Positions 603 through 40,969 of a DNA stretch of 40,969 nt are shown piece by piece. Under the pieces are notes generated by a model. It made no database searches, was not told the origin of the DNA, and saw only the letters and a program-made list of their open reading frames with translations. Origin of the DNA: Candidatus Staskawiczbacteria bacterium RIFCSPLOWO2_01_FULL_43_17b (lineage in GTDB: Bacteria > Patescibacteriota > Minisyncoccia > Minisyncoccales > Staskawiczbacteraceae). Within the stretch, counting starts at the first letter, position 1, and every line of letters starts with the position of its first letter. Location: contig MHPC01000002.1 in NCBI GenBank assembly GCA_001820305.1, forward strand, positions 1-40,969. The letters are read 5' to 3'. A program made the translations under genes and the position numbers.

Positions 603-1109
603 ATGCAAGAAGAAAAAACACTTACGGAAGCTACATTGTGTTATTTGGTGACTGATTCCCATATTTCCCTTGGCATCAAAAAGAAAAAAATCGGTAAGGG
701 TAAATACAATGGTTACGGCGGTGGCTTTGAGAGAAACGAAGATGCCCAGCAGTGCGTGGTCCGTGAGTGTGACGAAGAAGTTGGGGTTCAAGTGTTTCCC
801 AGCTCGCTCCAAAAAGTGGCTTTGGTATATTTCAACAATACCAAAAGCGATGGCAATACGTTTACCTGCAAGGTGCATGTGTACTTCGCTACCCGATGGC
901 AGGGAACACCCAGGGAAACGGAAGAAATTGCTAACCCGCATTGGTTTCCTAGGGCAGGGTTGCCGTTTGCGCGCATGATGCCGGCGGACCGGTTCTGGCT
1001 GCCACCCGTCCTGGAAGGCAAGAAAGTGATAGCCCGGGCATGCTATGGGCCATTCCAAAGAGAGTTACTGAAACTGGTGGAAGTAGAAATGGTTGATGAA
1101 CTTGCGTGA
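603..1109 (+). CDS. NUDIX hydrolase (MutT-like)
   Basis: Nudix box GGGFERNEDAQQCVVRECDEEVGV; RBS AGGGG upstream of ATG. Confidence 0.8.
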   Translation: MQEEKTLTEATLCYLVTDSHISLGIKKKKIGKGKYNGYGGGFERNEDAQQCVVRECDEEVGVQVFPSSLQKVALVYFNNTKSDGNTFTCKVHVYFATRWQGTPRETEEIANPHWFPRAGLPFARMMPADRFWLPPVLEGKKVIARACYGPFQRELLKLVEVEMVDELA

Positions 1110-1138
1110 GGCTTCTCGTTACCGGGAAGCCTTTTTTA
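1108..1138 (+). terminator. rho-independent terminator (GGCTTC...GAAGCC + T6)
   Basis: hairpin followed by TTTTTTAT immediately after NUDIX stop. Confidence 0.6.
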
Positions 1139-1183
1139 TGTGTTGATTTTTGTATTTTTGAGTGATAAACTTGGCATAATAAC

Positions 1184-1257
1184 GCCGCTTTAGTTAAGTG
1201 GTAGAACAACGCTTTCGTAAAGCGTAGACACAAGTTCGATTCTTGTAAGCGGCTCCA
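1184..1257 (+). tRNA. tRNA-Thr (anticodon CGT), CCA encoded
   Basis: cloverleaf: acceptor GCCGCTT/AAGCGGC, D-arm AGTT..AACA, anticodon stem ACGCT/AGCGT loop TTCGTAA, T-arm ACAAG-TTCGATT-CTTGT, discriminator T, CCA. Confidence 0.85.
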
Positions 1258-1262
1258 AAGAT

Positions 1263-2447
1263 ATGTTCAGCGCAAAAGAAAAAATCCAAAGATTATTGGA
1301 TAAAGCGGGTGTCACCATTAACGGCCCCCATGATTTTGACATCCAGGTGCATAACGAAAAACTCTATGGGCGGGTGTTGCTAGGCGGATCGCTGGCGCTG
1401 GGCGAATCTTACATAGACGGCTGGTGGGATGCCAAAAACCTTGACCAGTTCTTCCATAATATTTTATCGGCCGGGCTTTCCGAGGAATTCAAATTAACCT
1501 GGCCTACGTTACTTACGTTTTTAAAAACCTATCTTTTTAATCTGGAAACCCCTTCGCGCTCTTTTGAAGTGGGTCAAAAACACTATGACATTGGCAATGA
1601 TGTGTATGAAGCCATGCTGGACAAGCGCTTGGTGTACACCTGCGGTTACTGGGCCCCTTCGACAGATTCGACAGGCTCACTGCAAGCAAGCTCAGGGCAG
1701 GCAGAGAGAAATTTAGATGAAGCCCAAGAAGCAAAACTGGATTTGGTGTGCCGGAAAATCGGCCTGAAAAAAAGTGACAGGGTTTTGGACATTGGCTGTG
1801 GTTGGGGGAGTTTTTTGAAATTCGCCTCAGAAACATATGGCGCCAAGGGCACCGGAGTGACCGTTTCAAAAAACCAAGTGGCACTGGCCAAAGAAGTTTG
1901 CCAGGGCCTGCCCATAGAAATTTTGCTGCAAGACTACCGTGATGTAAAAGGCAGCTTTGACCACATTGTTTCCCTTGGTATGTTTGAGCACGTTGGGGTG
2001 AAAAATTACCGCACCTACATGCAAAAAGCCCATGACTTGTTAAAAGATGGCGGGTTGTTTTTGTTGCACACCATTGGCGTAAGCCAACCCCTGGAATTTG
2101 TGGACCCGTGGGTTGAAAAATATATTTTTCCCAACAGTATTTTGCCCGCCCCGGTAGAGGTGTCAAAAGCTATGGAAGGGCTTTTTACCATTGAAGACTG
2201 GCACAATTTCGGCGCAGATTACGATAAAACTTTGATGGCTTGGTTTGAGAATTTTGATGCTGCCTGGCCGCAACTTAGCGCTAAATATTCTGACCCTTCA
2301 ATTCCACTCAGGGCAAGCAAATTTTATCGCATGTGGAAATATTATCTGCTCAGTTTTGCCGGCTCTTTCCGCGCCCGCAATCTTCAGCTTTGGCAGATTG
2401 TGTTGAGTAAAAGGGGAGTGCCCGGCGGGTATAAATCGGTACGCTGA
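1263..2447 (+). CDS. cfa: cyclopropane-fatty-acyl-phospholipid synthase family SAM-dependent methyltransferase (carries in-frame insertion)
   Basis: 394 aa; HYDIGNDVYEAMLDKRLVYTCGYW and VLDIGCGWGSF motifs typical of the CFA synthase family; starts 6 nt after tRNA-Thr. Confidence 0.85.
   Translation: MFSAKEKIQRLLDKAGVTINGPHDFDIQVHNEKLYGRVLLGGSLALGESYIDGWWDAKNLDQFFHNILSAGLSEEFKLTWPTLLTFLKTYLFNLETPSRSFEVGQKHYDIGNDVYEAMLDKRLVYTCGYWAPSTDSTGSLQASSGQAERNLDEAQEAKLDLVCRKIGLKKSDRVLDIGCGWGSFLKFASETYGAKGTGVTVSKNQVALAKEVCQGLPIEILLQDYRDVKGSFDHIVSLGMFEHVGVKNYRTYMQKAHDLLKDGGLFLLHTIGVSQPLEFVDPWVEKYIFPNSILPAPVEVSKAMEGLFTIEDWHNFGADYDKTLMAWFENFDAAWPQLSAKYSDPSIPLRASKFYRMWKYYLLSFAGSFRARNLQLWQIVLSKRGVPGGYKSVR
1655..1705 (+). 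repeat. in-frame insertion element (expanded copy): CCTTCGACAGATTCGACAGGCTCACTGCAAGCAAGCTCAGGGCAGGC, translated PSTDSTGSLQASSGQA
   Basis: same core CCTTCGACAGGCTCAGGGCA(G/A)G found in frame in two other genes (24725, 29291); interrupts conserved Cfa segment ...CGYW|...|ERNLDEAQEAKL. Confidence 0.6.
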
Positions 2448-3435: not shown

Positions 3436-4552
3436 ATGGCAGGACAGCAAGAACATATAGACAAGCTGGGTGAACAGGTCCAATATTTGGTGGACCGGCT
3501 TTGATGTTGATGTAAAAGAGAAAGAATTAAAGGCATTAGAACTGCAAACGCAGGCGGTAGATTTTTGGAATGATCACCAGGTAGCTGCCACGATAAGCCA
3601 GAAAATTGCAGAGTTAAAGGAGGAATTGGAGGTGGCCGAATCTTTGAAGAAAGAATTTGCGGATTTAAAAGAATTGAATGAACTGGGGCAGGTTGATGAA
3701 GCTGCGGTTGAAAAGTTACAGGTAAAAGTGGCCAGGGAAGAAAGCAAGGCATTTTTATCGGGGAAGTATGATAAAAATAACGCCATTTTAGAAATTTTCA
3801 GCGGAGCCGGCGGGGTGGACGCGCAAGATTGGGCCACCATGTTGCTTAGGATGTACCAGCGTTATTGTGTGATTAAAGGCTGGAAGGCGGAAATTCTGCA
3901 CCAAAGTTTTGGTGAAGGTGGCGGGCCGGACGGGCGCATTGGCACCAAAAATGTGACGCTGGCAATTCAAGGCAAGTTTGCCTATGGCATGCTAAAAAAA
4001 GAAGCGGGAGTACACCGCCTGGTGCGCCAATCACCGTTTTCTTCCCAGAAACTGCGCCATACTTCGTTTGCCTTGGTGGAAGTGATGCCGGAAATTGCTC
4101 AAAGTGCGGAACTTGAAATAAAACCGGAAGACTTGCGGGTGGACACGTTTCGGGCTTCAGGGCCTGGCGGGCAGTATGTCAATAAAACCGAATCGGCCAT
4201 TCGCTTGACCCATATTCCCACGGGCATTGCCGTGGCTTCCCAGAGCGAACGTTCCCAGGGCCGTAACCGCGAAAACGCCATGAAAATTTTATATGCCAAA
4301 CTGCACGCGGCCCAGCAGCAAGAGCATAAAAAAGAACTAAAAGAAATTAAGGCCGCCCAGAATACTGGGCGAGCCTCGCCAGCGGGCGGGGAGAATAGTG
4401 CTTCATGGGGAAACCAGATCCGCAGCTACGTGTTACATCCGTACAAAATGGTAAAAGATTTGCGCACCCAGTATGAAACCAGCCAAGCCGAAGATGTGCT
4501 GGAAGGAAACTTAGAAGAATTCATCCAAGCAGAAGTAAAATACCATGATTAG
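3436..4552 (+). CDS. prfB: peptide chain release factor 2 with programmed +1 frameshift (join 3436..3501,3503..4552)
   Basis: short frame-0 ORF MAGQQEHIDKLGEQVQYLVDRL ends at canonical CTT TGA T shift site (3499-3504) preceded by SD-like TGGTGGA; +1 frame continues DVDVKEKELKALE...; GGQ (SGPGGQYVNKTES) and SPF (QSPFSSQ) motifs. Confidence 0.9.
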
Positions 4553-5225
4553 ATTTGAAAAGGTTACCAAAATTTACTTGCCCGAATCCGCCGTTTTGCA
4601 AGATGTTTCTTTTGAAGTAAAAAAGGGCGAGTTTGTTTCCATTGTGGGAAAATCGGGGGCGGGCAAATCCACCTTGATTAAAATGATTTTGGGGTTGGAA
4701 GAGCCCACCTACGGCGATGTCTTTTTTAACGGGGAAAACATTCATAAAGTCAGCCACAATGAATTGCAGAATATCCGGCGTAAAATCGGCGCGGTTTATC
4801 AGGATTACAAGTTGCTGCCCGCCAAAACCGTGTATGAGAACGTAGCCTATATCATGGAAATTGAAGGCAGGGTAAACGAAGATATTGCTTTGCAGGTTCC
4901 CAGGGTACTGGCGGCCATCGGGCTGAAAGAGAAAATGGATAACTTTCCCGAAGAACTTTCCGGCGGCGAACAGCAGCGCCTGGCCATTGCCCGGGCGTTA
5001 GCGGGGCAGCCGGAGGTGATTATTGCGGATGAGCCGACCGGGAATTTGGATCCGTATAATTCCCATGAAGTGCTGGCGCTGTTGGAAAAAATAAACCGGT
5101 CGGGGAAAACCGTTATCTTGGCCACGCACGATAGGGAAATTGTCAACAAATTAGCGCGAAGGGTGATTACCATAGAAGACGGGAGGGTGGTGAGGGACGA
5201 AGAAAAAGGAAGATTCATTATTTAG
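4545..5225 (+). CDS. ftsE: cell division ATP-binding protein FtsE (ABC ATPase)
   Basis: Walker A GKSGAGKST, signature LSGGEQQR, Walker B IIADEPTGNLD; overlaps prfB stop by 8 nt; followed by ftsX. Confidence 0.9.
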   Translation: MIRFEKVTKIYLPESAVLQDVSFEVKKGEFVSIVGKSGAGKSTLIKMILGLEEPTYGDVFFNGENIHKVSHNELQNIRRKIGAVYQDYKLLPAKTVYENVAYIMEIEGRVNEDIALQVPRVLAAIGLKEKMDNFPEELSGGEQQRLAIARALAGQPEVIIADEPTGNLDPYNSHEVLALLEKINRSGKTVILATHDREIVNKLARRVITIEDGRVVRDEEKGRFII

Positions 5226-5313
5226 GGTCTAGGGGATAGGGTCTAGGGTCTAGTAAAAACGTAACACGGCGTTACGGCTAAACCCTAACCCCTAGACCCT
5301 AAGCCCTCAAAAA
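5226..5313. repeat. intra-operon palindromic repeat (GGGTCTAGGG.../...CCCTAGACCCTAA arms, CCCTAA-type)
   Basis: imperfect inverted repeat arms of about 25 bp around central CGTAAC-ACGGC-GTTACG hairpin; fills ftsE-ftsX spacer exactly. Confidence 0.7.
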
Positions 5314-5314
5314 A

Positions 5315-6226
5315 ATGGCACATTTTTCAAGGGTATTGGGTTTCGCTTTTGCGCATTTTTACCGTAACAAAGGCACTTCCGTGGCCGCGATTTTTATTTT
5401 AACCATCACCACCCTGCTTATCACCGGGCTGTTTTTTGTGCGCGGCGCCAGTAATTACGTTATCGCTCAGGTGCAAAACAAAATTGACATTACCGCCTAT
5501 TTTAAAGCGGACGCGGCCGAAGATGATATTTTGCAGGTGCGCCAGGAATTGCTGCAAGATGGCGAAGTTGTCAGGGCGGTTGAATATGTTTCCCAAGACC
5601 AGGCTTTGGCCGATTTTAACGCAAAGCACCAAGATGATCCCACCTTTGAACGCGCACTTCAGGAAGTGGGGCAGAATCCCTTTTTGCCTTCACTGAATAT
5701 TATTACCAATGGGGCGGCGGCTGAATATGAGAATGTTGCCAATGTGCTGACCCAGGATAAATATGCCGTGCTAATAGAAGAGGTTGATTTTTCTGAAAAA
5801 AGGGATACTATTGAAAAGGTCTTTGCCATCACGGGTAGCATCACGCGGTTTGGGCTGGTGGCCGGGGTATTGCTTTTGCTGATTGCCATTTTAGTGGTTT
5901 TTAACACCATCAAACTGATTGTGGAAACTTCCGGGCAGGAAATCAGCACCATGCGTATTGTGGGGGCTTCAAACTGGTTTATTCGCGCGCCATTTGTTAT
6001 TCAAGGGGTTATTTTTGGGGCCATTTCGTTTGCCATTTGTTTTGTGGCAACCGCTTTGATAGCTTATCTTTTAGCTTCGGGGATTTCTGTTATCATGCCT
6101 GGATTTAATTTGTTCACATTTTTCCTTTCTAATATTTTGATTATCATGGTCATTCAACTGGCCGCCGGCGCGGGCCTGGCAAGTTTGTTAAGTTTTATGG
6201 TGGTGAGGAAGTATTTAAAAGTATAA
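5315..6226 (+). CDS. ftsX: cell division permease FtsX
   Basis: 303 aa, N-terminal TM, large periplasmic loop, three C-terminal TM helices; downstream of ftsE. Confidence 0.85.
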   Translation: MAHFSRVLGFAFAHFYRNKGTSVAAIFILTITTLLITGLFFVRGASNYVIAQVQNKIDITAYFKADAAEDDILQVRQELLQDGEVVRAVEYVSQDQALADFNAKHQDDPTFERALQEVGQNPFLPSLNIITNGAAAEYENVANVLTQDKYAVLIEEVDFSEKRDTIEKVFAITGSITRFGLVAGVLLLLIAILVVFNTIKLIVETSGQEISTMRIVGASNWFIRAPFVIQGVIFGAISFAICFVATALIAYLLASGISVIMPGFNLFTFFLSNILIIMVIQLAAGAGLASLLSFMVVRKYLKV

Positions 6227-6328
6227 ACCCTAAATACTAAATCCTAAACTCTAAATAAATTCAAAATCACAAAATTTAAAATCTAAAACACGTTTAGGAT
6301 TTAGAGTTTAGTGTTTATGGTTTAACAT
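6227..6328. repeat. intra-operon palindromic repeat (CTAAA-type; shares exact 25-mer TTTAGGATTTAGAGTTTAGTGTTTA with 37656-37760)
   Basis: arms AAACCCTAAATACTAAATCCTAAACTCTAAATAAA / TTTAGGATTTAGAGTTTAGTGTTTATGGTTT; fills gap between ftsX stop and tRNA-Gln. Confidence 0.7.
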
Positions 6329-6399
6329 TGCGGGATCGTCTAATGGTAGGACAACAGATTCTGGATCTGTTTATCTAGGTTCGAATCCTAGTCCCGCAG
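6329..6399 (+). tRNA. tRNA-Gln (anticodon CTG), no encoded CCA
   Basis: U1:A72 pair and G73 discriminator typical of bacterial tRNA-Gln; anticodon stem ACAGA/TCTGT loop TTCTGGA; T-arm CTAGG-TTCGAAT-CCTAG. Confidence 0.8.
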
Positions 6400-6532
6400 C
6401 AGTCTTATGCTAAGTCAGGTGACTAGGACGCATAGAGAACTTTTCCTTTGATGGCATACCGGTTGAGTTACCGCATTCAGAACAAAAATTCGCCCCAAAG
6501 GCGCTTTTTTGTTGCGTGATAAAAATTAAACA

Positions 6533-6561
6533 TTGACATTCTCTAAAAATCAGTTAGTATT
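6533..6561 (+). promoter_or_regulatory. sigma70-type promoter (TTGACA - 16/17 nt - TAGTAT) for the MVP-like gene
   Basis: consensus -35 hexamer, good spacing, followed by RBS AGGAG 8 nt before ATG 6635; preceded by a weak hairpin+T6 at 6488-6511. Confidence 0.55.
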
Positions 6562-6634
6562 TCTGGTATGCCATACATAATGTGTGTAGGCAGTCCTTTG
6601 ACCTATCCCAACTCTTTTACAGGAGAATTAGTTT

Positions 6635-14205: not shown

Positions 14206-14541
14206 ATGAATAAAATAATAATAATAATAATACTATCATTGATTGGTTTGGCGCTTATTGTTGGGGCCGGTTTTTATTTTTACGCCAGCGTGTTTCCAAA
14301 ATCCCAGGTGGAAAATGTAAATGGGGGGCTTAACACCCAAATGCCCCAAGAAAACGATTCTGACGCCCCGACCGTCGAGGTAGAGGCAGAGGTTAGGACT
14401 GAGCCTGCCAGCGGCGGCGGGTTAACGATTTGCGCGGATCAATGCGGGGATGGCATTTGCCAGGACAGGGACGCGTATTGTAATAGTTTGAATTGTATTT
14501 GCATAGAAAACTCCAAAGAATGCCCACAAGATTGTAAATAA
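14206..14541 (+). CDS. small secreted/membrane-anchored Cys-rich protein (hypothetical)
   Basis: N-terminal hydrophobic IIIIIILSLIGLALIVGAGFYFY; C-terminal CADQCGDGICQ...CNSLNCICIENSKECPQDC; no obvious SD; starts 8 nt after tRNA 3' repeat. Confidence 0.5.
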   Translation: MNKIIIIIILSLIGLALIVGAGFYFYASVFPKSQVENVNGGLNTQMPQENDSDAPTVEVEAEVRTEPASGGGLTICADQCGDGICQDRDAYCNSLNCICIENSKECPQDCK

Positions 14542-14554
14542 TGGTTTAAAGTTT

Positions 14555-14593
14555 GCCGCCTTTTGCAACCATTGCAAAAGGCGGCGTTTTGTT
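14555..14593 (+). terminator. rho-independent terminator (GCCGCCTTTTGCAA-ccat-TTGCAAAAGGCGGC + GTTTTGTT)
   Basis: perfect 14-bp palindrome followed by T-rich run. Confidence 0.7.
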
Positions 14594-14603
14594 ATACAAT
14601 GAG

Positions 14604-14881
14604 CCTAGGGCGCCAGTTCATATTATAACTTATGGTAGCGAGTAAATTCGGGCAAGATTCAAGGCGCAACGAGGAAACGTATCCTCTGCGATACGTTGAC
14701 GAAGTTGCAACGATGAAGCTTGCCCGAATTCACTCGCCCAAAGGGAAACCAAAAAATGGCTGATTTCTTCGTTTTTCCTCGTCGGCGATACACTGCGGTA
14801 TCGCCTCCTCGGAAGAAACCTTGAAATCATCTCATTTTTTGGCTTCTACCATAAGTCCTAATATGAACTGGCACCCTAGAG
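14604..14881 (+). ncRNA. about 280-nt structured element B (second family member): closing inverted repeat CCTAGGGCGCCAGTTCATATTA...TAATATGAACTGGCACCCTAGAG, inner helix GAATTCGGGCAAG/CTTGCCCGAATTC, conserved ATTCAAGGCGC / GCAACGATGAAG / TGAAAT.AT.TCATTTTTTG
   Basis: alignment with element A shows conserved loops and covarying helices; intergenic between Cys-rich ORF and MBL-fold gene. Confidence 0.55.
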
Positions 14882-14922
14882 CGCGAAAGTTAAATTTTGG
14901 CGCTTATCCTAATCTCAATCCC

Positions 14923-15669: not shown

Positions 15670-15760
15670 TTTATTGGGGTCTAGCGTCTAGGGTATAGGG
15701 TATAGTAAAACGGCGTACGTCGTGACTAGCCCCTAGCCCCTATCCCCTAAACCCTCAAGA
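15670..15760. repeat. intra-operon palindromic repeat (GGGGTCTAGCGTCTAGGGTATAGGG.../...CCCCTAGCCCCTATCCCCTAAACCC)
   Basis: same architecture as 5226-5313 (TAGGG unit arms, central CGTACG hairpin); fills spacer between MBL gene stop and DUF167 ATG. Confidence 0.65.
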
Positions 15761-15982
15761 ATGAAGATCATTATCAAAGCCAAGCCGGGTTCAAGAGAAG
15801 ACAAGATAGAAAAAGTAGATGAAGCTAATTACATTGTTTATGTGACGGCTCCGCCCATTGACGGCAAGGCCAACGCGGCTATTATTAAGTTACTGGCGGC
15901 GCATTTTGACGTGAGCCAATCGTTGATAGAAATCATTTCCGGCCACATGGCGCGGGTGAAAGTAGTAGAAATAAATAACTAA
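15761..15982 (+). CDS. DUF167/YggU (UPF0235) family protein
   Basis: 73 aa; IIIKAKPGSREDKIE...YIVYVTAPPIDGKANAAIIKLLAAHF pattern typical of YggU. Confidence 0.65.
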   Translation: MKIIIKAKPGSREDKIEKVDEANYIVYVTAPPIDGKANAAIIKLLAAHFDVSQSLIEIISGHMARVKVVEINN

Positions 15983-22985: not shown

Positions 22986-23011
22986 AGTCCTGTAGTCCGA
23001 ACCACAGGACT
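22986..23011 (+). promoter_or_regulatory. hairpin AGTCCTGT-AGTCCGAACC-ACAGGACT 8 nt upstream of TrpR-like gene; inverted partner at 23389-23414
   Basis: 26-nt sequences at both ends of the gene are reverse complements of each other (1 mismatch). Confidence 0.5.
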
Positions 23012-23018
23012 AAAATAA

Positions 23019-23372
23019 ATGACAGTCTTTCACCTAAATAAACTGCCAAAAGAAAAACGCATCCAGATGATTGGCGAGTTTTACGATATGGTGGATTCGC
23101 TAAAAGACAGAAATGAAGTGCGGTTATTTTTTAAGAGTCTTTTGAGTGCCGATGAAATAGCTAGTCTTATGAGACGGATAGAAATTGCCATGTTGTTGTC
23201 TTCTGGCCAGAAATACGAGGATATTATCAAAACCATGAAAGTGGGGCGTGATAAAATTTCCAGTGTGCATAAGGCGCTTCTGCAAGATGACAGCGGTTAT
23301 GCTATAATCGTGGAAAGATTAATTGAAAATCGGAAGAAGTGGGTGGAAAAAGTGAAAAAGGATAAAAAATAA
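23019..23372 (+). CDS. TrpR/YerC-YecD-like helix-turn-helix protein (paralog 1)
   Basis: 117 aa; LPKEKRIQMIGEFYDMVDSL...ADEIASLMRRIEIAMLL...KISSVHKALL; paralog at 29769-30200. Confidence 0.6.
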   Translation: MTVFHLNKLPKEKRIQMIGEFYDMVDSLKDRNEVRLFFKSLLSADEIASLMRRIEIAMLLSSGQKYEDIIKTMKVGRDKISSVHKALLQDDSGYAIIVERLIENRKKWVEKVKKDKK

Positions 23373-24082: not shown

Positions 24083-24772
24083 ATGGCAAAACTATTTTTA
24101 TTGAGGCATTTGAAATCACAGTGGAACAAGGATGATCGCTTTGCGGGGTGGGTGGATAACCCTCTTTCGGATGAAGGTCGGGCGCAAGCGGCGGGAATTG
24201 CCGACCAGTTGCGAGGCCAGCAAATTGACGTGGCGTATTGCAATGCTTTAATTCGTTGCACGGAAACCGTTTTGCGTGTGTATGAAAAAATAGATGGAAA
24301 ATATCCGTTGTTTTTGCATATTGATGGCGGGAACATGCAAGAATGGGGAAACTATACTGGCAATGGAATGGGCGAGGTGCCGTTTTACGTGAGCGAAAAA
24401 TTAAATGAGCGCTATTATGGTAGTGTGCAAGGGTTGAACAAAGCCCAGTGTAAAAAAGAATACGGTGAGGATGTAGTGCAGCAGTGGCGCAGGGCTTACA
24501 AAGTGGCGCCGCCGGAAGGGGAGTCAGGTGAAGACACGTTTAATCGTGTGTTGCCATTTTACCAACAATACATTGAAAAAGATTTAAAGGCCGGGAAAAA
24601 TGTGTTGGTGGTGGCCAGCCATAACAGTTTGCGGGCCATTGCCAAACATATTGAAAACATTTCTGATGATGACGTGGCGAATTTAGAACTCCCATTTGGG
24701 GCGCTGGTGGAATACGAATTTGACCCTTCGACAGGCTCAGGGCAGGCGGGAAAATTTACTAAGTTGCAATAA
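24083..24772 (+). CDS. gpmA: histidine phosphatase / 2,3-bisphosphoglycerate-dependent phosphoglycerate mutase-like (carries in-frame insertion near C-terminus)
   Basis: LLRHLKSQWNKDDRFAGWVDNPLSDEG (RHG-type catalytic motif variant); ...EYEFDPSTGSGQAGKF C-terminus. Confidence 0.65.
   Translation: MAKLFLLRHLKSQWNKDDRFAGWVDNPLSDEGRAQAAGIADQLRGQQIDVAYCNALIRCTETVLRVYEKIDGKYPLFLHIDGGNMQEWGNYTGNGMGEVPFYVSEKLNERYYGSVQGLNKAQCKKEYGEDVVQQWRRAYKVAPPEGESGEDTFNRVLPFYQQYIEKDLKAGKNVLVVASHNSLRAIAKHIENISDDDVANLELPFGALVEYEFDPSTGSGQAGKFTKLQ
24725..24748 (+). repeat. in-frame insertion element CCTTCGACAGGCTCAGGGCAGGCG (PSTGSGQA)
   Basis: identical core to 29291-29312 and 1655-1705. Confidence 0.6.
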
Positions 24773-26733: not shown

Positions 26734-26811
26734 TTATCCCGATCAATTTAGCAAAGCTAAATTGATACGGGATCCCGTATCAAAATTTATACTAAATTTT
26801 TATCGGGATAG
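26734..26811. mobile_element. MITE-like hairpin element copy 2 (TTATCCCGAT-caATTTAGCAAAGCTAAAT-TGATACGGGATCCCGTATCA-...-ATCGGGATAG), no cargo
   Basis: same palindromes and terminal inverted repeats as 13728-13877. Confidence 0.55.
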
Positions 26812-27277: not shown

Positions 27278-29710
27278 ATGAAAAATGTTTTGTGGTTTAA
27301 AGAGCTAGGCATTAAAGATGTGCCGCAGGTGGGCGGGAAAAATGCCTCGCTTGGTGAAATGTATAATAATTTGCTAAGTAAGGGAGTTAATTTGGCAAAC
27401 GGTTTTGCCACCACCTCCCAGGCTTATTTTATTTTTCTGGAAAAAAGCGGCTTGTCTTTGCAAATCCAGAACATTTTAAAAGATATTAATGTGCATGACC
27501 TGGCCGCACTGCAAGAAAAAGGCAAGAAAGTGCGCCAGCTTATTTTGAGTGTTAATTTGCAGCCCGCCCTTCAAGAAGAAATCATCGCGGCTTACCGCCA
27601 GCTGTCGGATATGTACGGGTCAAAAAATACCGATGTGGCAGTAAGGTCTTCGGCCACTGCCGAAGACCTGCCCGGAGCCAGTTTTGCCGGCCAACAGGAA
27701 ACGTTTTTAAATGTTACCGGGGAACAAAATGTATTGGAGGCGGTGAAAAAATGCTTTGCATCTTTGTTCACTGACCGGGCCATTGCTTACCGCCAGGAAA
27801 TGGGGTTTGGGCATACCAAAGTGGGCTTATCGGCTGGCATCCAAAAAATGGTGCGCTCCGACGTGGGCGCCAGCGGCGTGATGTTTTCCTGTGACACGGA
27901 AAGCGGTTTTGGCGACGTGGTGCTCATTAACGCCAGCTATGGTTTGGGTGAAAATGTGGTGTTGGGAAGAGTGGAGCCGGACCAATATTACGTGTTTGAG
28001 CCTACCCTAAAAACGGGGCACAAACCCATTATCCAAAAAAAAATCGGGTCAAAGCTTTTGACCATGGTTTACACCAAAGACCCAAAAAACCCGATTAAAA
28101 ACACCAAAACCTTGCCAAAAAACCAGCAATCATTTGTGTTGGCAGATGAAGAAATTTTGCAGCTGGCTAAGTGGTCAATGCTGGTGGAAGCCCACTACCA
28201 AAAACCCATGGACATGGAATGGGCCAAAGACGGTATTGACGGCAAATTGTATATTGTCCAAGCTAGGCCCGAAACCGTACAAAGCAAACGGAACGTGAAT
28301 GTGCTAGAAGATTACGTTTTGCAAACACCCAAAACCCAACACCTAACACCCATTGCTAGGGGCATGAGTGTCGGGGGAAAAATCGGATCCGGCAAGGCCC
28401 ATAAAATTTTAAGCCCGAAGGATATTAATAATTTCAAAAAAGGGGAAGTGCTGGTAACCGGCATGACAGACCCGGACTGGGTGCCGGCCATGAAACTGGC
28501 CAGCGCGATTATTACCGACCAGGGCGGTCGCACGGCTCACGCGGCCATTGTTTCCCGTGAATTGGGAATTCCCTGCATTGTGGGCGCGGGCAATGCCACT
28601 AAAACCGTAAAAACCGGCCAGGAAATTACCGTGGATTGTTCCGGCGGAGAAGAGGGCTTTGCTTACGAAGGCATTATTCCGTTTGAAATAAAAAAAGTAG
28701 ATATTTCAAAATTAAAAAAGCCCAAAACTAAAATCGCCATGAACTTGGCAGACCCTTCCCAAGCCTTTAATTTAAGCTTTATTCCCAATGACGGCGTGGG
28801 CCTAGCGCGGGAAGAATTTATTATTGCCAACACCATCAAAATTCACCCCAACGCCCTGATAGATTACAAAAAATTAAAGCCGGCGCTGCGTAAAAAAATT
28901 GACGCGCTGACGCTGGGGTATGAAAATAAGATTGATTTTTACGTTGATAAATTGGCCGAAGGGGTGGGGAAAATTGGCGCGGCATTTTACCCAAAACAGG
29001 TGATAGTGCGATTTTCTGATTTTAAAACCAACGAATACCGTCAGTTGGTAGGCGGCGAGCTTTACGAAATGCATGAAGAAAATCCCATGATGGGTTTTCG
29101 CGGAGCTTCCCGGTATTATCACGAAAGTTTCAAGCAGGCCTTTATGTTGGAATGCCAGGCCATTAAAAAAGTGCGGGAGGAATTTGGCATTGATAACGTG
29201 CAAGTGATGATTCCCATGTGCCGGACTATTGAAGAGGGCCAGAAGGTGCTGGAAGTCATGAAGGAAGCCGGTTTGGTGAAAGGTGAGAACCCTTCGACAG
29301 GCTCAGGGCAAGTGGCCTTGAAAGTATATGTCATGTGCGAACTTCCGGCTAACGTGGTTTTAGCAGAACAGTTTTTGGAAATGTTTGACGGCTTTTCCAT
29401 TGGGTCTAATGATTTAACCCAGTTTACCCTGGGCCTGGACCGCGATAATTCGGAAATGTCCGGCGTTGCCAACGAAAAAAATGATGCGGTGAAAGAATTA
29501 ATTAAAGAGGCGGTGCGGGTTTGTAAAAAAATGGGGAAATATTCGGGCATTTGCGGAGACGCGCCTTCCACATTCCTTGAATTTACCAAATTTTTGGTAG
29601 ACCAGGGCATTGAATCAATTTCTTTGTCATCAGACGCCATTATTAAAACTACGATGGCGGTACTTGAGTATGAAAAGGAAAAATCCGCAAATACAATTAA
29701 TAGGACGTAG
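27278..29710 (+). CDS. ppsA: phosphoenolpyruvate synthase (pyruvate, water dikinase) carrying in-frame insertion
   Basis: N-terminal FKELGIKDVPQVGGKNASLGEM, phosphohistidine domain GGRTAHAAIVSRELGIPCIVG, C-terminal PEP-utilising domain; 810 aa. Confidence 0.9.
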   Translation: MKNVLWFKELGIKDVPQVGGKNASLGEMYNNLLSKGVNLANGFATTSQAYFIFLEKSGLSLQIQNILKDINVHDLAALQEKGKKVRQLILSVNLQPALQEEIIAAYRQLSDMYGSKNTDVAVRSSATAEDLPGASFAGQQETFLNVTGEQNVLEAVKKCFASLFTDRAIAYRQEMGFGHTKVGLSAGIQKMVRSDVGASGVMFSCDTESGFGDVVLINASYGLGENVVLGRVEPDQYYVFEPTLKTGHKPIIQKKIGSKLLTMVYTKDPKNPIKNTKTLPKNQQSFVLADEEILQLAKWSMLVEAHYQKPMDMEWAKDGIDGKLYIVQARPETVQSKRNVNVLEDYVLQTPKTQHLTPIARGMSVGGKIGSGKAHKILSPKDINNFKKGEVLVTGMTDPDWVPAMKLASAIITDQGGRTAHAAIVSRELGIPCIVGAGNATKTVKTGQEITVDCSGGEEGFAYEGIIPFEIKKVDISKLKKPKTKIAMNLADPSQAFNLSFIPNDGVGLAREEFIIANTIKIHPNALIDYKKLKPALRKKIDALTLGYENKIDFYVDKLAEGVGKIGAAFYPKQVIVRFSDFKTNEYRQLVGGELYEMHEENPMMGFRGASRYYHESFKQAFMLECQAIKKVREEFGIDNVQVMIPMCRTIEEGQKVLEVMKEAGLVKGENPSTGSGQVALKVYVMCELPANVVLAEQFLEMFDGFSIGSNDLTQFTLGLDRDNSEMSGVANEKNDAVKELIKEAVRVCKKMGKYSGICGDAPSTFLEFTKFLVDQGIESISLSSDAIIKTTMAVLEYEKEKSANTINRT
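29291..29312 (+). repeat. in-frame insertion element CCTTCGACAGGCTCAGGGCAAG (PSTGSGQV)
   Basis: splits conserved ...GLVKGEN|...|ALKVYVMCELPANV block of PpsA. Confidence 0.6.
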
Positions 29711-29735: not shown

Positions 29736-29761
29736 ACACCCATGCACCAACGCATGGGTGT
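29736..29761 (+). promoter_or_regulatory. hairpin ACACCCATGC-ACCAAC-GCATGGGTGT 7 nt upstream of TrpR-like paralog 2; inverted, wobble-paired partner at 30211-30239
   Basis: 10-bp perfect stem; downstream copy ACACTTATGCATTGGTGCGTGGGTACACT is its approximate reverse complement. Confidence 0.45.
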
Positions 29762-29768
29762 AAGAAAT

Positions 29769-30200
29769 ATGCCAACATTCCACCTAAATAGTTTACCAAA
29801 AGAAAAGAGAATTCAAATGATTGGCGAGTTTTATGATACGGTTGATTCACTGAAAGACAGGCAAGAGGTTCGCTCATTTTTCAAATCATTGCTAGCCGCC
29901 GATGAAATTGCTGCGCTCATGAGGAGGATTGAAGTGGCAATGCTTCTATCTGCTGAATATAGCTACGATAAAATCAAGAAAATGTTGGGGGTGGGGAATA
30001 ATAAAATTTCTAGTGTGCATAAAGCGTTGCTTCAAGACGATAGTGGATATGCTATGATTGTTAAAAGATTGATTGAGGACAGGAAAAATAGGTTAATAAA
30101 AATAAAAAAAGAAGGGAAGGGTACAATAGACGAAAAAGAATTAGAAAGGGAGGCGCTACTATTTACTCCGTCGTCTGCGGCGGTCAGGAGAAAGAAATAG
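29769..30200 (+). CDS. TrpR/YerC-YecD-like helix-turn-helix protein (paralog 2, longer C-terminal tail)
   Basis: about 70% identical to 23019-23372 over first 110 aa (MPTFHLNSLPKEKRIQMIGEFYDTVDSLKDRQEV...); start set to ATG 29769 by homology. Confidence 0.6.
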   Translation: MPTFHLNSLPKEKRIQMIGEFYDTVDSLKDRQEVRSFFKSLLAADEIAALMRRIEVAMLLSAEYSYDKIKKMLGVGNNKISSVHKALLQDDSGYAMIVKRLIEDRKNRLIKIKKEGKGTIDEKELEREALLFTPSSAAVRRKK

Positions 30201-36954: not shown

Positions 36955-37655
36955 TGACATCCGAATCTACTAATAACGTAAAACTTAACGCGGATGATAT
37001 GGCCAAAGCCGGCCTGAATTTTGGTCATACCGTTTCCAAGCTTCATCCTAAAATGAAGGCTTTTGTACAGGGCGTTAAAAGCAATGTCCACATGATTGAT
37101 ATGGAAAAGTCCGCCAAAGAATTTGATTTGGCTTTGAAATTTATTTCCCAATTAGTTGCCGAAGGAAAAACATTGCTGTTTGTGGGAACAAAAATACAGG
37201 CAAAAAATTTAACCAAAGTAGCGGCGGTGGAAAGCGGTATGCCATATGTTACCGAACGGTGGCTGGGTGGAGCCTTTACTAATTTTGAAACCATTTCAAA
37301 ACGGGTGGCTCACTTGAAAGACTTGGAAAGCAAAAAAGCCAAAGGTGAATTTGAGAAATATACCAAATATGAACAGATGATGCTTAATGAAGAAATCGCT
37401 TCGCTGACCACGAAATTTGAAGGCATCAAAAATATGGCAAAGTTGCCGGAAGCCGTTTTAATTTTAGATTTAAAAAAAGACATTGCCGTAGCGCGTGAAG
37501 CAAAACGCAAGGGTATTAAAATTGTGGGCATTGTAGACACCAATATTGACCCGGCTCTGGCCGATTACGCCATTTATGCCAATGATGACGCCGTTTCTTC
37601 TATTGGATACGTGCTGGAAAAAATCAAAGAAACTATATTAAGTGCGAAACCCTAA
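36954..37655 (+). CDS. rpsB: 30S ribosomal protein S2
   Basis: AGLNFGHTVSKLHPKMKAFV..., LLFVGTK, conserved S2 blocks. Confidence 0.9.
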   Translation: MTSESTNNVKLNADDMAKAGLNFGHTVSKLHPKMKAFVQGVKSNVHMIDMEKSAKEFDLALKFISQLVAEGKTLLFVGTKIQAKNLTKVAAVESGMPYVTERWLGGAFTNFETISKRVAHLKDLESKKAKGEFEKYTKYEQMMLNEEIASLTTKFEGIKNMAKLPEAVLILDLKKDIAVAREAKRKGIKIVGIVDTNIDPALADYAIYANDDAVSSIGYVLEKIKETILSAKP

Positions 37656-37760
37656 ATCCGAAACCCTAAACTCTAAATAAATAAAAAATTCAAAATAAAA
37701 AACGTTTTGAGTTTAAATATTTGAGTTTATTTAGGATTTAGAGTTTAGTGTTTAGAATTT
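37656..37760. repeat. intra-operon palindromic repeat (CTAAA-type; exact 25-mer shared with 6227-6328)
   Basis: CCCTAAATCCGAAACCCTAAACTCTAAATAAAT...TTTAGGATTTAGAGTTTAGTGTTTA fills rpsB-tsf spacer. Confidence 0.7.
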
Positions 37761-38210
37761 ATGATTAATATCGAAGATATTAAGAGATTGAGAGATGAAA
37801 CCGGTGCCTCGCCGGTGAAAATTAAAAAGGCCATGGAAGAGTCTGGGGAAGATGTTCAAAAAGCCAAGGAATTGTTGAAAAGCTGGGGAGCGGTAAAAGC
37901 CGGTGAAAAAGGAGGGCGCGAAACCCATGACGGTGTGATTGATTTTTATATCCATCCTAATGCCAAGTCCGGCGTACTACTGGATATCCGTTGTGAAACT
38001 GATTTTGTGGCAAAAAACCCCGATTTTAAAAGCCTGGCTCACGAAATTTGCCTGCACATTGCCGCCATGCAGCCTGAAAATGTTGAAGCCTTGCTGGCGC
38101 AATCCTGGGTAAAAGACGATGCCAAAACCATTAAAAGTTTGATTGAAGAAACAGTAGCTAAAATAGGGGAGAATATTACTGTGAAACAGTTTGCACGCTT
38201 TGCGATATAA
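37761..38210 (+). CDS. tsf: elongation factor Ts (short form)
   Basis: UBA-like N-terminus IKRLRDETGASPVKIKKAMEESGEDVQKAKELLK followed by dimerisation core. Confidence 0.85.
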   Translation: MINIEDIKRLRDETGASPVKIKKAMEESGEDVQKAKELLKSWGAVKAGEKGGRETHDGVIDFYIHPNAKSGVLLDIRCETDFVAKNPDFKSLAHEICLHIAAMQPENVEALLAQSWVKDDAKTIKSLIEETVAKIGENITVKQFARFAI

Positions 38211-38818: not shown

Positions 38819-39276
38819 GCCATCTTGAAATGAGGGAGGTAAGTAGCAAGTGAAAACCAAGCACTCATTTTTGTACATTAAGCCAGGGGGTGGATTGCGT
38901 GTCGTTGGCACGAGCGGCGGCACCTTTTTCGGTTGCGCCTAGGGTCAGGGTAACGGGAAAAGAACCAGTAATAATCGTGACTGGACAGTTCACCTCTTGT
39001 AATTTTCAGGGAAAAAGGAATGGGCTGGCCAGCCTATTGGCGCTCCGGGTTCAGTTTCGTTAACTGACGACGAGGTCTTCCACGCGGCCCATTTCCTCTT
39101 TTTTCAATGTGTCCAAAAATGAGTGCTCGGTAAAGTAACTTGTTTAAAATTAGTTTTTGAAAGTTGTTTCGAATAAGCTTAATACGTGCTTAACGTATAT
39201 ATTATTTGAGAGTTTGATCCTAGCTCAGGGTGAACGCTGGAAATGTGGATACCGGCATGCAAGTCAAGGGGCCCAG

Positions 39277-39543
39277 GGATGTAGACTCTGAACGCGAATC
39301 TAAATTGAGAAGCGAAAAAATGTGATAATTTCAATGTTTCTTGCGACGAAATGTAGTGACTACTACATTGAGGAGTAAAAACGAAGAAATTAGCCATTTT
39401 TTCGCTTCCCTTCGGGCTTTCATATTTTGATTATCTTCTGCGTCTTCGGAGCTTAACGATGCCTACAGCATCGCTTCGCTCCTCAGTTCTTGAATATAAT
39501 CAAAATATGGAAGCTCAATTGATTCTGTTCAGAGTCTACATCC
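39277..39543 (+). other. about 267-nt intervening sequence in 16S helix 6 closed by perfect 17-bp stem GGATGTAGACTCTGAAC/GTTCAGAGTCTACATCC
   Basis: E. coli has about 35 nt here; AT-rich interior with several CGCTTC-containing hairpins; no ORF. Confidence 0.6.
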
Positions 39544-39933
39544 TTAAGGCACCGGCGAACGGCTTAGTAACACGTGGATACATACCGCAAAGTGGAGCAC
39601 AGCTCGTCGAAAGACGGGGTAATTCTCCATAATCCCGCAAGGGTAAACACGCAAGTGGCTTTGTGAATGGTCCGCGGTCTATCAGCTAGTTGGTGAGGTA
39701 ATGGCTCACCAAGGCTATGACGGATAGGGGGCGTGAGAGCGCGACCCCCAAGAATGGCACTGCGACACGGGCCATACTCCTACGGGAGGCTGCAGTCGAG
39801 AATCTTCCACAATGGACGAAAGTCTGATGGAGCGACATTTCGTGATGGATGAAGCCCTTCGGGGTGTAAACATCTTTTATGCGGGAAAAAATTATTGATT
39901 GTACCGCATGAATAAGGGGGTACTAATTCTGTG

Positions 39934-40815
39934 ACCCGCAAGGGTGGTGCAGAATATTCGCAGTAATGCGGATAAAGCAAACTTGGCTCATATGCTGGAA
40001 CACCTTGTGTGTCCGCTAACTCCTTTCATTTTTGAAAGGCGCGCACAAGACAATCAGCAGGGAAGCTGATATATGTTATAATAAACATATATTTAGCCCC
40101 TCAGAGACTGAATCCGAAAGGATGAAATGGTGGCATATAACCCACCATTATACGCCGAGCTCCTGGTTTTTAATCAGGATGATGGGATAGTCCAGTGGCA
40201 CATTATCGTATATGGAAACAAAGGCGCGAGCAATATTAATTGGATTAATTCTTGGAGATGGATATTTAACAAAGCCGTTTGGTAGCAGTACCAAATCTAT
40301 GCTGGATATTAAATATCATGAGAAATCTTTAGAGTATCTTCAATGGATGCATAAAGAGTTACAAGAATTACAACTTTCTGAAATCAAAAAGAAAAAAGGG
40401 GCTTCCCAATATCGGTTTTATACTAAAACCAGAGATGATATTGGCCGGCTTCATGAGATATTTTATCCTGGCGGAGTCAAACATATTCCAAAAGGTATTA
40501 CTAAATATCTTAAAGATCCGTTAACTTTGGCCGTGTGGTATCAAGATGACGGAAAGCTAGATTTCAGGAGCAAATATCATTCCAATTCATTATTTGCGAC
40601 ATATTGTTTTCCCTACGATGAATGTGAATTATTAGCTAATGCATTGCGTGTAAATTTTGACTTAGATGTGCGAGTCTGCAAATGTCAAATGCGTGGAAAA
40701 ATGTATTATTCTTTATATGTGACCTCAAAAAGCATGGATTTATTCATGCAGATTATTGAGCCACATATACAGAAATGCTTTTACTATAAATTAGTAAAGT
40801 ATCGCAAATAACTAG
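39934..40815 (+). mobile_element. intron/intervening sequence in 16S (within GTG|CCAGCAG, E. coli about 515) encoding a LAGLIDADG homing endonuclease
   Basis: conserved 16S sequence resumes at GCCAGCAGTAGCGGTAATAC (40815); exact boundaries ambiguous by 1 nt because of G at both junctions. Confidence 0.7.
40212..40811 (+). CDS. LAGLIDADG homing endonuclease (double-motif)
   Basis: LIGLILGDGYL and LAVWYQDDGKL motifs; 199 aa; stop 4 nt before 3' exon. Confidence 0.85.
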   Translation: METKARAILIGLILGDGYLTKPFGSSTKSMLDIKYHEKSLEYLQWMHKELQELQLSEIKKKKGASQYRFYTKTRDDIGRLHEIFYPGGVKHIPKGITKYLKDPLTLAVWYQDDGKLDFRSKYHSNSLFATYCFPYDECELLANALRVNFDLDVRVCKCQMRGKMYYSLYVTSKSMDLFMQIIEPHIQKCFYYKLVKYRK

Positions 40816-40969
40816 CCAGCAGTAGCGGTAATACAGAACCCCCGAGCGTTACCCGGATTTATTGGGCGTAAAGGGTTGGTAGGTGGCGTAGTAAGTTCAA
40901 GATTAAACCTCATCGGCTTAACCTTTGAGCTGTTTTGAATACTGCTACACTAAGAGGGCGTTAGAGGCA

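Follow-up and report, generated by a model that had tools for sequence, protein, structure and literature searches.

A 24-nucleotide hairpin repeat lies in frame in three conserved genes of a Candidatus Staskawiczbacteria genome and belongs to a probably mobile family found in many bacterial phyla

The DNA analysed here (the window) comprises 41 kb of a Candidatus Staskawiczbacteria genome (Patescibacteria, or Candidate Phyla Radiation, CPR; contig MHPC01000002.1, positions 1 to 40,969) from groundwater of the Rifle aquifer, and three of its genes, cfa, a gpmA-like gene and ppsA, each contain a short GC-rich element within an otherwise intact reading frame (Table 1). The sequence CCCTTCGACAGGCTCAGGGCA occurs exactly at 24724 (gpmA-like) and 29290 (ppsA); the 23-mer CCCTTCGACAGGCTCAGGGCARG is exact on the + strand at 24724-24746 and 29290-29312, with 0 matches in 100 dinucleotide-preserving shuffles of the window, and the 13-nt core TTCGACAGGCTCA recurs exactly inside cfa at 1667-1679. 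A covariance model trained on copies from other organisms retrieves these three sites (39.1, 37.3 and 17.6 bits) and no others, the next-best match in the window reaching 9 bits. The three in-frame insertions are, with high confidence, copies of a dispersed repeat family that spans many phyla.

All three host open reading frames (ORFs) lie on the + strand and carry the element in the identical frame, which yields PSTGSGQA in the gpmA-like product, PSTGSGQV in PpsA and PSTDSTGSLQASSGQ in Cfa, with GENPSTGSGQVALK, EFDPSTGSGQAGK and YWAPSTDSTGSLQASSGQAER as the junction-spanning peptides of the inserts. At ~71% GC, the element departs from the 44-46% GC of the window. The gpmA-like unit is placed between a conserved D and GK in a C-terminal turn, and that of ppsA in a loop of the C-terminal TIM-barrel domain. 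An earlier account made from the letters of this DNA (the sequence-only reading) had reported a PSTGSGQ-motif element in frame in the three genes, with coordinates that proved right within 1-2 nt; its statement that every copy translates to PSTGSGQ holds for the frame, which all copies share, but not for the cfa copy, in which the motif is not contiguous. That copy is a 48-nt composite (1655-1702, translated PSTDSTGSLQASSGQ(A)), as its earlier description as an expanded version implied, but the internal duplications then proposed turn out to be one 24-nt unit nested in another. The inner unit has its own stem, CAG(a)/CTG, paired in the covariance-model match (1661-1690, 17.6 bits, E=0.016), and because this stem differs from that of the outer unit, the inner unit is not a local duplication. 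The window holds singlets or nested copies only, with no inverted doublet; all three (n=3) lie on the + strand, with positive GC skew, as do all genes of the window.

Table 1. Units of the repeat and their host genes in the window
Feature	Position	Strand	Sequence or basis
Solo 24-nt unit, gpmA-like gene	24724..24747	+	CCC-TTCGACAGGCTCA-GGG-CAGGC, reads (D)PSTGSGQA; 39.1 bits, E=2e-8
Solo 24-nt unit, ppsA	29290..29313	+	CCC-TTCGACAGGCTCA-GGG-CAAGT, reads PSTGSGQV; 37.3 bits
cfa composite, outer unit, left half	1655..1663	+	CCCTTCGAC; read from sequence
cfa composite, inner complete 24-nt unit	1664..1687	+	AGA-TTCGACAGGCTCA-CTG-CAAGC = AGATTCGACAGGCTCACTGCAAGC, within the loop of the outer unit
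cfa composite, outer unit, right half	1688..1702	+	AAGCTCAGGGCAGGC; read from sequence
Host gene cfa (cyclopropane-fatty-acyl-phospholipid synthase), otherwise intact	1263..2447	+	E=1e-113 to E. coli 6bqc, full length; Pfam CMAS
Host gene for dPGM-like histidine phosphatase (gpmA-like), otherwise intact	24083..24772	+	E=3e-40 to E. coli dPGM 1e58
Host gene ppsA (phosphoenolpyruvate synthase), otherwise intact	27278..29710	+	120 orthologues with PPDK_N, PEP-utilizers, PEP-utilizers_C; matches 2ols

The inserts of 8 (gpmA-like), 8 (ppsA) and ~15 amino acids (cfa) are missing from close orthologues (74-88% identity) and from solved structures, and are therefore lineage-specific insertions. PpsA of the window has GEN-PSTGSGQV-A-LKV and its orthologues at 77-88% identity have GEN-[D/G]-LKV; in alignments with two solved structures of PpsA, 2ols and 9dae, 8 residues have no counterpart at this point. 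At the DNA level, GGT GAA AAC followed directly by GAT TTG in the relative L126 (88% amino-acid identity) corresponds to GGT GAG AAC, 24 nt and GCC TTG in the window, a clean 24-nt gap with no target duplication at the ppsA junction. Orthologues of the gpmA-like protein at 84-86% identity have 222 residues and read EYEFD-GK-F, against 229 residues and EYEFD-PSTGSGQA-GK-F in the window, and P0255 and P0270 have variant elements there. For Cfa, the sequence W-K-D-A-K-NL runs on without an insert in most of 120 CPR orthologues, and the window protein has 15 extra residues relative to E. coli Cfa (6bqc). An AlphaFold2 model of Cfa (mean predicted local distance difference score, pLDDT, 89; predicted template-modelling score, pTM, 0.88) drops below a pLDDT of 50 solely at residues 133-145, which mark the insert as a low-confidence, predicted disordered loop. 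The proposal of the sequence-only reading that extra residues had entered between conserved blocks, probably in surface loops, is borne out by these alignments, by the D-G turn of the gpmA-like protein and by the Cfa model, and the nearest orthologues lack the residues, contrary to the possibility that they are universal. Judged from sequence divergence, the ppsA and gpmA-like insertions are probably younger than the split from relatives ~85-88% identical, and the cfa site seems on balance to be an older or repeatedly targeted nested pair.

A short GC-rich exact repeat in a metagenome-assembled genome (MAG) could also be an adapter, primer, vector or chimeric assembly, and the cluster does contain one plain case, P0004, a chimeric read assembly, whose reading as a strain variant that lacks the insert was rejected on that ground. 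Such an artefact is excluded for practical purposes, with next to no probability left to it: identical Cfa occurs on 11 contigs and the GpmA-like protein on 15, from independent ENA, JGI, NCBI and Logan assemblies, finished isolate genomes and plasmids carry the element too, reading frames are preserved, and the variants are diverged and covarying. We know of no Illumina, Nextera, 454, PacBio or Oxford Nanopore (ONT) adapter that it matches.

Alignment of 252 distinct copies reveals a conservation block from -1 to +25, G-CCCTTCGACARGCTCAGGGC-GAACGG, with zero information on either side. The basic unit of 24-27 nt consists of a 3-4-bp GC-rich stem, an invariant 13-nt loop, TTCGACARGCTCA, and a short 3' tail, which is CGAACGG in the commonest subfamily and CARGC in the 24-nt subfamily of the window, whose copies have a 3-bp stem and no GAACGG tail; written as a single-stranded hairpin, the unit is GCCCTTCGACAAGCTCAGGGCGAACGG. 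Among 145 units free of search-pattern constraint, the core is enclosed by a Watson-Crick stem of 3 bp or longer in 107, compared with 22.7 when partners are shuffled, and at least six kinds of stem occur (GGGC/GCCC, GTGC/GCAC, RTGG/CCAC, GTCC/GGAC, ATCC/GGAT, ACTG/CAGC). In an 86-sequence alignment, 86.9% of cells are paired versus 56.3% in shuffles, and double-sided stem changes number 106 versus 37, a level matched by 0/500 shuffles; the signal collapses once partners are slid by one column. The unit is thus a hairpin whose stem covaries, free in sequence provided that its arms are complementary, and whose loop and 3' tail stay fixed.

The family to which the element belongs extends beyond the Staskawiczbacteria genome and is present across many phyla. 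The 20-mer CCCTTCGACARGCTCAGGGC is found in at least 120 IMG/VR contigs and in at least 120 genomes of a one-genome-per-species GTDB collection, among them isolates of Microbacterium, Microlunatus, Desertihabitans, Sphingomonas, Sphingobium, Sphingopyxis, Porphyrobacter, Moraxella and Pseudacidovorax, and MAGs of Cyanobacteria, NC10, Acidobacteriota, Chloroflexota, Armatimonadota, Syntrophaceae, Planctomycetota, Lentisphaerae, Verrucomicrobiota, Ignavibacteria, Saccharibacteria and Peribacteria. Its span exceeds 10 phyla, including Actinomycetota, Pseudomonadota, Chloroflexota, Acidobacteriota, CPR, Cyanobacteria and the Planctomycetes-Verrucomicrobia-Chlamydiae (PVC) group. Element doublets also occur on plasmids of Moraxella, Sphingobium, Comamonas, Polaromonas and methanotrophs (including Methylobacter), and the element was not found in 5,426 E. 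coli genomes or in 50,697 cultured-phage records. Of the "viral" loci, about 30 prove to be head-tail clusters of Alphaproteobacteria that resemble gene transfer agents (GTA), with the repeat between genes; these IMG/VR matches reflect host repeats and not phages, and a phage origin, which the IMG/VR matches had suggested, was rejected on the basis of the GTA-like loci and the absence from cultured phages.

An inverted partner stands 17-50 nt upstream (a tail-out doublet) in 73 of 245 copies (~30%), and 58% are singlets; no target duplication was seen around the inspected doublets. In Microbacterium mangrovi, tandem arrays of 54-nt and 71-nt repeats containing the unit flank one gene: in this isolate (NZ_JTDK01000011.1, L128), five 54-nt and three 71-nt repeats at 4336-4680 and 6440-6660 enclose a single 541-aa ORF at 4794-6419. 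When the unit is written as X (CCTTCGAC) followed by Y (ARGCTCAGGG plus tail), the 18 distinct sequences with a doubled X include nested series of the form X X Y Y (L028, L256), X3...Y3 (L255) and X4...Y4 (L265). Tandem duplication would give XYXY, and the matched numbers of X and Y fit repeated insertion at the X-Y junction; the self-insertion point is always between TTCGAC and ARGCTCA, with nesting up to four deep. The layout of outer-left half, complete inner unit and outer-right half recurs in L127, L249 and L251, and there, as in the window cfa copy, the inner unit differs from the outer. Furthermore, the 48-nt nested form is present in at least 119 metagenome contigs, at loci with a GC content of 0.32-0.72, and its inner stem covaries, being CGG/CCG in 69 cases and CAG/CTG in at least 14, with CGG opposite CTG in none.

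Approximately 40% of the short-form copies lie within a long, unambiguous ORF. Among these copies the PSTGSGQ frame accounts for 35 of 96 and each of four other open frames for 14-18, the sixth frame containing TGA; in the nested form, the PST[DG]S..SGQ frame accounts for 46 of 69 unambiguous cases and the sense orientation for 62, against 7 antisense. All of these counts rely on ORF-length heuristics in GC-rich DNA and are blind to gene-breaking copies in the stop-containing frame, and because such copies are missed, the frame bias is best read as survival of benign peptides. Hosts by Pfam assignment include a Ser/Thr kinase, DNA polymerase A, DnaK (at two sites), RecF, a KBL-type aminotransferase, PheT, a class I aminoacyl-tRNA synthetase, GatB and a beta-CASP RNase. 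As a further observation, bacterial Ser/Thr protein kinases on five metagenomic contigs (L270, L280, L281, L308 and L353; GC 0.66-0.69) carry the nested 48-nt form at the same position, in the context …HICT[IV]YD[VI]GE-[insert]-…IAMEL…, which adds a recurrent hotspot to those in the loops of cfa and ppsA.

The same loops are occupied repeatedly, and by different forms. An isolate of Microlunatus endophyticus carries an in-frame doublet (PELVEG-LRQAQ) just before motif C of a PolA-like protein, and a metagenomic PolA has the nested form at the matching site. The ppsA loop holds, depending on lineage, the window singlet, the 48-nt form at the same codon (L127), peptides of the KPFDTAQGD type from another sense frame, or, in L252, a complete palindromic doublet that reads HPELVEGRKPFDAAQGD; ppsA has a second insertion hotspot close to residue 245. 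The nearest neighbours of insert-bearing Cfa proteins, at 79-89% identity, are insert-less, and proteins that are 86% identical can differ in carrying the short or the long form. All three window genes and the majority of coding copies use one frame, and many orthologues have the insert in the same loops, which could suggest that the peptide itself is selected, PSTGSGQ-type linkers having been gained convergently as beneficial flexible Ser/Thr/Gly loops or modification sites. This seems very improbable: what is conserved is the nucleotide sequence, down to codons that are identical from gene to gene and from phylum to phylum; the sequence also abounds outside genes and in four other frames; the two peptides PSTGSGQ and PSTSSGQ correspond to the two forms of the DNA, R=G and R=A; and most orthologues function without the insert.

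Patchy presence, differing forms and frames at the same loops, and X^nY^n nesting lead to the conclusion that the repeat family is or was mobile by insertion, which we hold with fair assurance. A different reading takes the copies to be no longer mobile, being old insertions or products of ectopic gene conversion kept similar by a hairpin function at the DNA or RNA level, such as a binding site for a conserved protein, with coding copies as by-products. An invariant loop across very distant taxa does suggest constraint, intergenic copies occupy conserved positions between alphaproteobacterial GTA head-tail genes, and the consensus of an expressed Aggregatibacter small RNA (sRNA), RF02901, contains the doublet. 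Such immobility is nevertheless quite unlikely: the ppsA and gpmA-like copies are missing in relatives 84-88% identical, the same loop holds differing forms and frames in sister lineages, X^nY^n nesting needs repeated insertion, and the window copies have neither the GAACGG tail nor a stem longer than 3 bp.

The mobile-element interpretation must also be set against templated insertion, in which breaks or replication gaps would be filled with 24 nt templated by an abundant RNA or DNA, for instance through reverse transcriptase, polymerase template switching or repair synthesis, so that the element would be a recurrent product rather than self-propagating. Several observations agree with such a process, namely that no transposase was found, that target duplication was not seen, that partial "stutter" copies of left and right halves exist, that copies are nearly identical across phyla and that the nested form in coding regions is strongly sense-biased. 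In addition, the right half AGCTCAGGGCGAACG resembles the 5' end of the window's own 16S rRNA, AGCTCAGGGTGAACG (39221-39236), with 14 of 15-16 positions identical. However, once stem variation is allowed the likeness shrinks to GCTCA-N4-GAACG, and it does not track the host 16S, so derivation from the 16S 5' end was set aside as probably coincidental. Stems that covary around a fixed loop point to selection on each copy's own hairpin instead of a single template, doublets and arrays are typical of REP/BIME organisation, and the sense bias can be explained by peptide tolerance. Templated insertion is accordingly judged unlikely.

The explanation that we favour, with moderate confidence, is that the three window sequences are translated copies of a tiny, non-autonomous mobile element of REP/RPE-like character. 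A nuclease or transposase specific for structure and loop, analogous to the HUH/Y1 enzymes (e.g., RAYT or the TnpA of the insertion sequences IS200/IS605), would copy the units and insert them in the form of single-stranded hairpins, with the element's own loop as preferred target. In genes, the survivors would be those insertions whose length is a multiple of three, whose frame is free of stops and whose site is a surface loop, and the PSTGSGQ frame would dominate as the most benign, being Gly/Ser/Thr-rich and flexible. By analogy, mobilisation by a hairpin-specific enzyme of HUH type is offered only tentatively. An association with Y1/RAYT genes was sought by tblastn with IS200 TnpA and a CPR Y1 protein, which gave nothing useful; an autonomous parent insertion sequence was likewise rejected, pairs of units 0.3-3 kb apart enclosing ordinary genes. 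A search for an enzyme in the element-rich contig 3300033145_001097 returned structural or unclassified proteins only.

Among known systems, the sequence-only reading had pointed to the Rickettsia palindromic elements (RPE), which Ogata and colleagues reportedly described in 2000. The behavioural likeness stands: RPE are dispersed palindromic repeats found in frame in conserved housekeeping genes and translated in surface regions with function kept, and they too have no associated transposase. RPE are, however, ~100-150 bp with long palindromic arms, confined to Rickettsia and lineage-specific in each family, in contrast to the 24-27 nt (48 nested), 3-4-bp stem, different sequence and presence in more than 10 phyla seen here. 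The element is not a member of the RPE family, from which host, spread and size set it apart, the RPE consensus having been compared by description only.

Closer parallels are offered by the REP elements, which Nunvar is said to have linked in 2010 with RAYT (TnpA_REP) tyrosine transposases. The likeness extends to a hairpin of 20-40 nt with an adjacent conserved unpaired tag, to the occurrence of singlets, inverted doublets with a 20-50-nt spacer and tandem clusters, and to a mostly intergenic, occasionally intragenic location with no target duplication. REP, BIME and REPIN elements are mobilised by RAYT (Bertels and Rainey, 2011; PMC3116915), and no cognate RAYT was found here in the window or in ~2 Mb of flanks. 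The REPIN doublet is held to be the mobile unit, whereas the nested forms indicate that singlets here appear to be self-inserting. REPs lying wholly inside ORFs, often in replication/repair and tRNA-related genes, have been described, sometimes at the same site in related species and with loops or linkers argued as their location (Di Nocera et al., 2013; PMC3733652). Hosts of the present element similarly include PolA, RecF, aminoacyl-tRNA synthetases and GatB; those intragenic families, in contrast, have 8-9-bp stems with 4-5-nt loops (CGTC) or GTAG tags (PMC3733652), and neither TTCGAC nor GTCGAA occurs in the text of that article.

IS200/IS605 elements and their miniature derivatives share hairpin dependence and the lack of target duplication, as well as insertion by a short sequence that is also found at the element's end, for which the counterpart here would be the point after ...CGAC in the loop and the ...ACGAC of some tails. 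They differ in their length of hundreds of nt and in having a left end distinct from the right; a TnpA was not found here, and the mechanism proposed above would be IS200/IS605-like by analogy. Miniature inverted-repeat transposable elements differ in that the pattern of terminal inverted repeats and target duplication is not seen, the flanks carrying no information. A scan of the window at Rfam gathering thresholds returned tRNAs and 16S only, and known RNA families were rejected as an explanation, the doublet loci giving only sub-threshold matches to RF02901 (AaHKsRNA41, Aggregatibacter sRNA 41). The RF02901 consensus holds CUGAgCUUGcCGAAG ... gUUCGgCAAGcUCAg, a doublet of the family; it differs in that matches score 22-31 bits against a gathering threshold of 97 and in being a 187-nt species-specific transcript. 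In-frame colonisation of genes by palindromic repeats is known (RPE; intragenic REPs, PMC3733652), and full-text searches for the DNA core and nine derived peptides found no published description of this family. The repeat is therefore best regarded, with the same moderate confidence, as a REP/RPE-like family of unusual breadth and architecture, with evidence for singlet self-insertion and with sub-threshold RF02901 as its sole trace in curated libraries.

Several points weigh against this interpretation. No transposase encoded in the window was found, and no Y1/HUH gene recurs in ~2 Mb of flanks around ~250 copies, where a single weak match was obtained; the sole Y1_Tnp gene beside a CPR cfa gene (L251) is flanked by a different hairpin. 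Flanks are uninformative, with no clear target-site motif beyond the element's own edge. Conserved stems, short variable loops and a GTAG or CGTC tag characterise the known REP families (PMC3733652), in contrast to the invariant loop and free stem seen here and to the tag of this family, which is GAACGG (3') or, in the window's subfamily, CARGC. REPIN/RAYT systems are described as vertically inherited and lineage-specific, and near-identity across phyla is not what they predict. Moreover, single units fold weakly (-1.7 to -3.8 kcal/mol, z ~0), whereas doublets fold strongly (-25 kcal/mol, z=-5.9); the thermodynamic support for single units is not significant, so it is covariation that carries their structure. 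To these points are added the limits of the frame counts given above and the fact that copy number and strand are known for one 41-kb window of the genome.

As a separate observation on the L251 locus, a gene at 919-1602 (-) encodes a 227-aa protein resembling Y1_Tnp/REP-associated tyrosine transposases (Pfam E=6e-7; NCBIfam REP_Tyr_transpos 35 bits, cutoff 80). The hairpin ATATCAAGGTTTAACCTTGATAT lies on both sides of it, and the whole looks like a separate REP/RAYT-like system of CPR bacteria.

A more far-reaching proposal, which is possible but held at less than even confidence, is that the 24-nt hairpin is a self-contained mobile DNA unit smaller than any seen before, one that inserts as a singlet, prefers its own loop, enters conserved proteins in frame and is near-unchanged in more than 10 phyla at 32-72% GC. 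Were this true, such breadth would imply either a very widespread, as yet undescribed and possibly housekeeping, hairpin-specific enzyme or frequent inter-phylum transfer, and the repeat would quite generally, and so far unnoticed, have supplied bacterial proteomes with Ser/Thr/Gly-rich loop insertions (PSTGSGQA, PSTDSTSSPQAGSGQA).

If the mobile-element interpretation is correct, a small repeat would account for many hitherto unexplained low-complexity loop insertions in metagenomic proteins and for many spurious "hypothetical proteins" reading PFDKLRANG, LSLSKG or PELVEG, and it should be masked in annotation pipelines and alignments. It would also provide a natural map of insertion-tolerant loops of essential enzymes, among them Cfa, PpsA, dPGM, PolA, DnaK, RecF, aminoacyl-tRNA synthetases and kinases, and the nested X^nY^n copies would constitute a built-in record of successive insertions, usable for studying its dynamics. 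The question raised would then be what enzyme could act on a 13-nt loop shared without change by Actinomycetota and CPR, when REP/RAYT systems are regarded as lineage-bound.

The window contains further features of interest. The 16S rRNA gene at 39202-40969 covers model positions 1-659 within 1768 nt, corresponding to a ~1.1-kb insertion that encodes a LAGLIDADG_2 homing endonuclease (ORF 40212-40811, 199 aa, E=1e-32); insertions of this kind are typical of CPR rRNA genes. An 835-aa ORF at 6635-9142 (+), with Pfam MVP_shoulder (E=1e-18) and Vault_3 repeats, is major-vault-protein-like and conserved in all related contigs. Intergenic inverted repeats at 5214-5314, 6206-6330, 15716-15765 and 37646-37766 are built of telomere-like heptamers, (CCCTAAA/TTTAGGG)n, pairing for example TAAACCCTAACCCCTAGACCCTAA with TTAGGGTCTAGGGGATAGGGTCTAG, and constitute a second, unrelated repeat family that possibly serves as terminators. 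A 33-nt sequence that includes the perfect palindrome TTGATACGGGATCCCGTATCAA is present in two identical copies, one at 13749-13781, just upstream of tRNA-Ile, and one at 26756-26788, ~500 nt before ppsA; a role as operator or promoter element is possible.

The stretch that follows tRNA-Ile (13786-14900) is rich in repeats: the last 36 nt of the tRNA (13835-13870) appear again at 14172-14207 with 92% identity, an 81-nt segment at 14001-14081 is repeated at 14707-14787, and a 48-nt arm at 14736-14783 shows 88% complementarity to part of the 16S gene (39370-39417). The stretch may be an integration scar or an rRNA-related spacer. Finally, two paralogous genes of the Trp_repressor family, at 23019-23372 just before two His_Phos genes and at 29742-30200 just after ppsA, share 124 nt at 76% DNA identity (23011-23134 versus 29761-29884).

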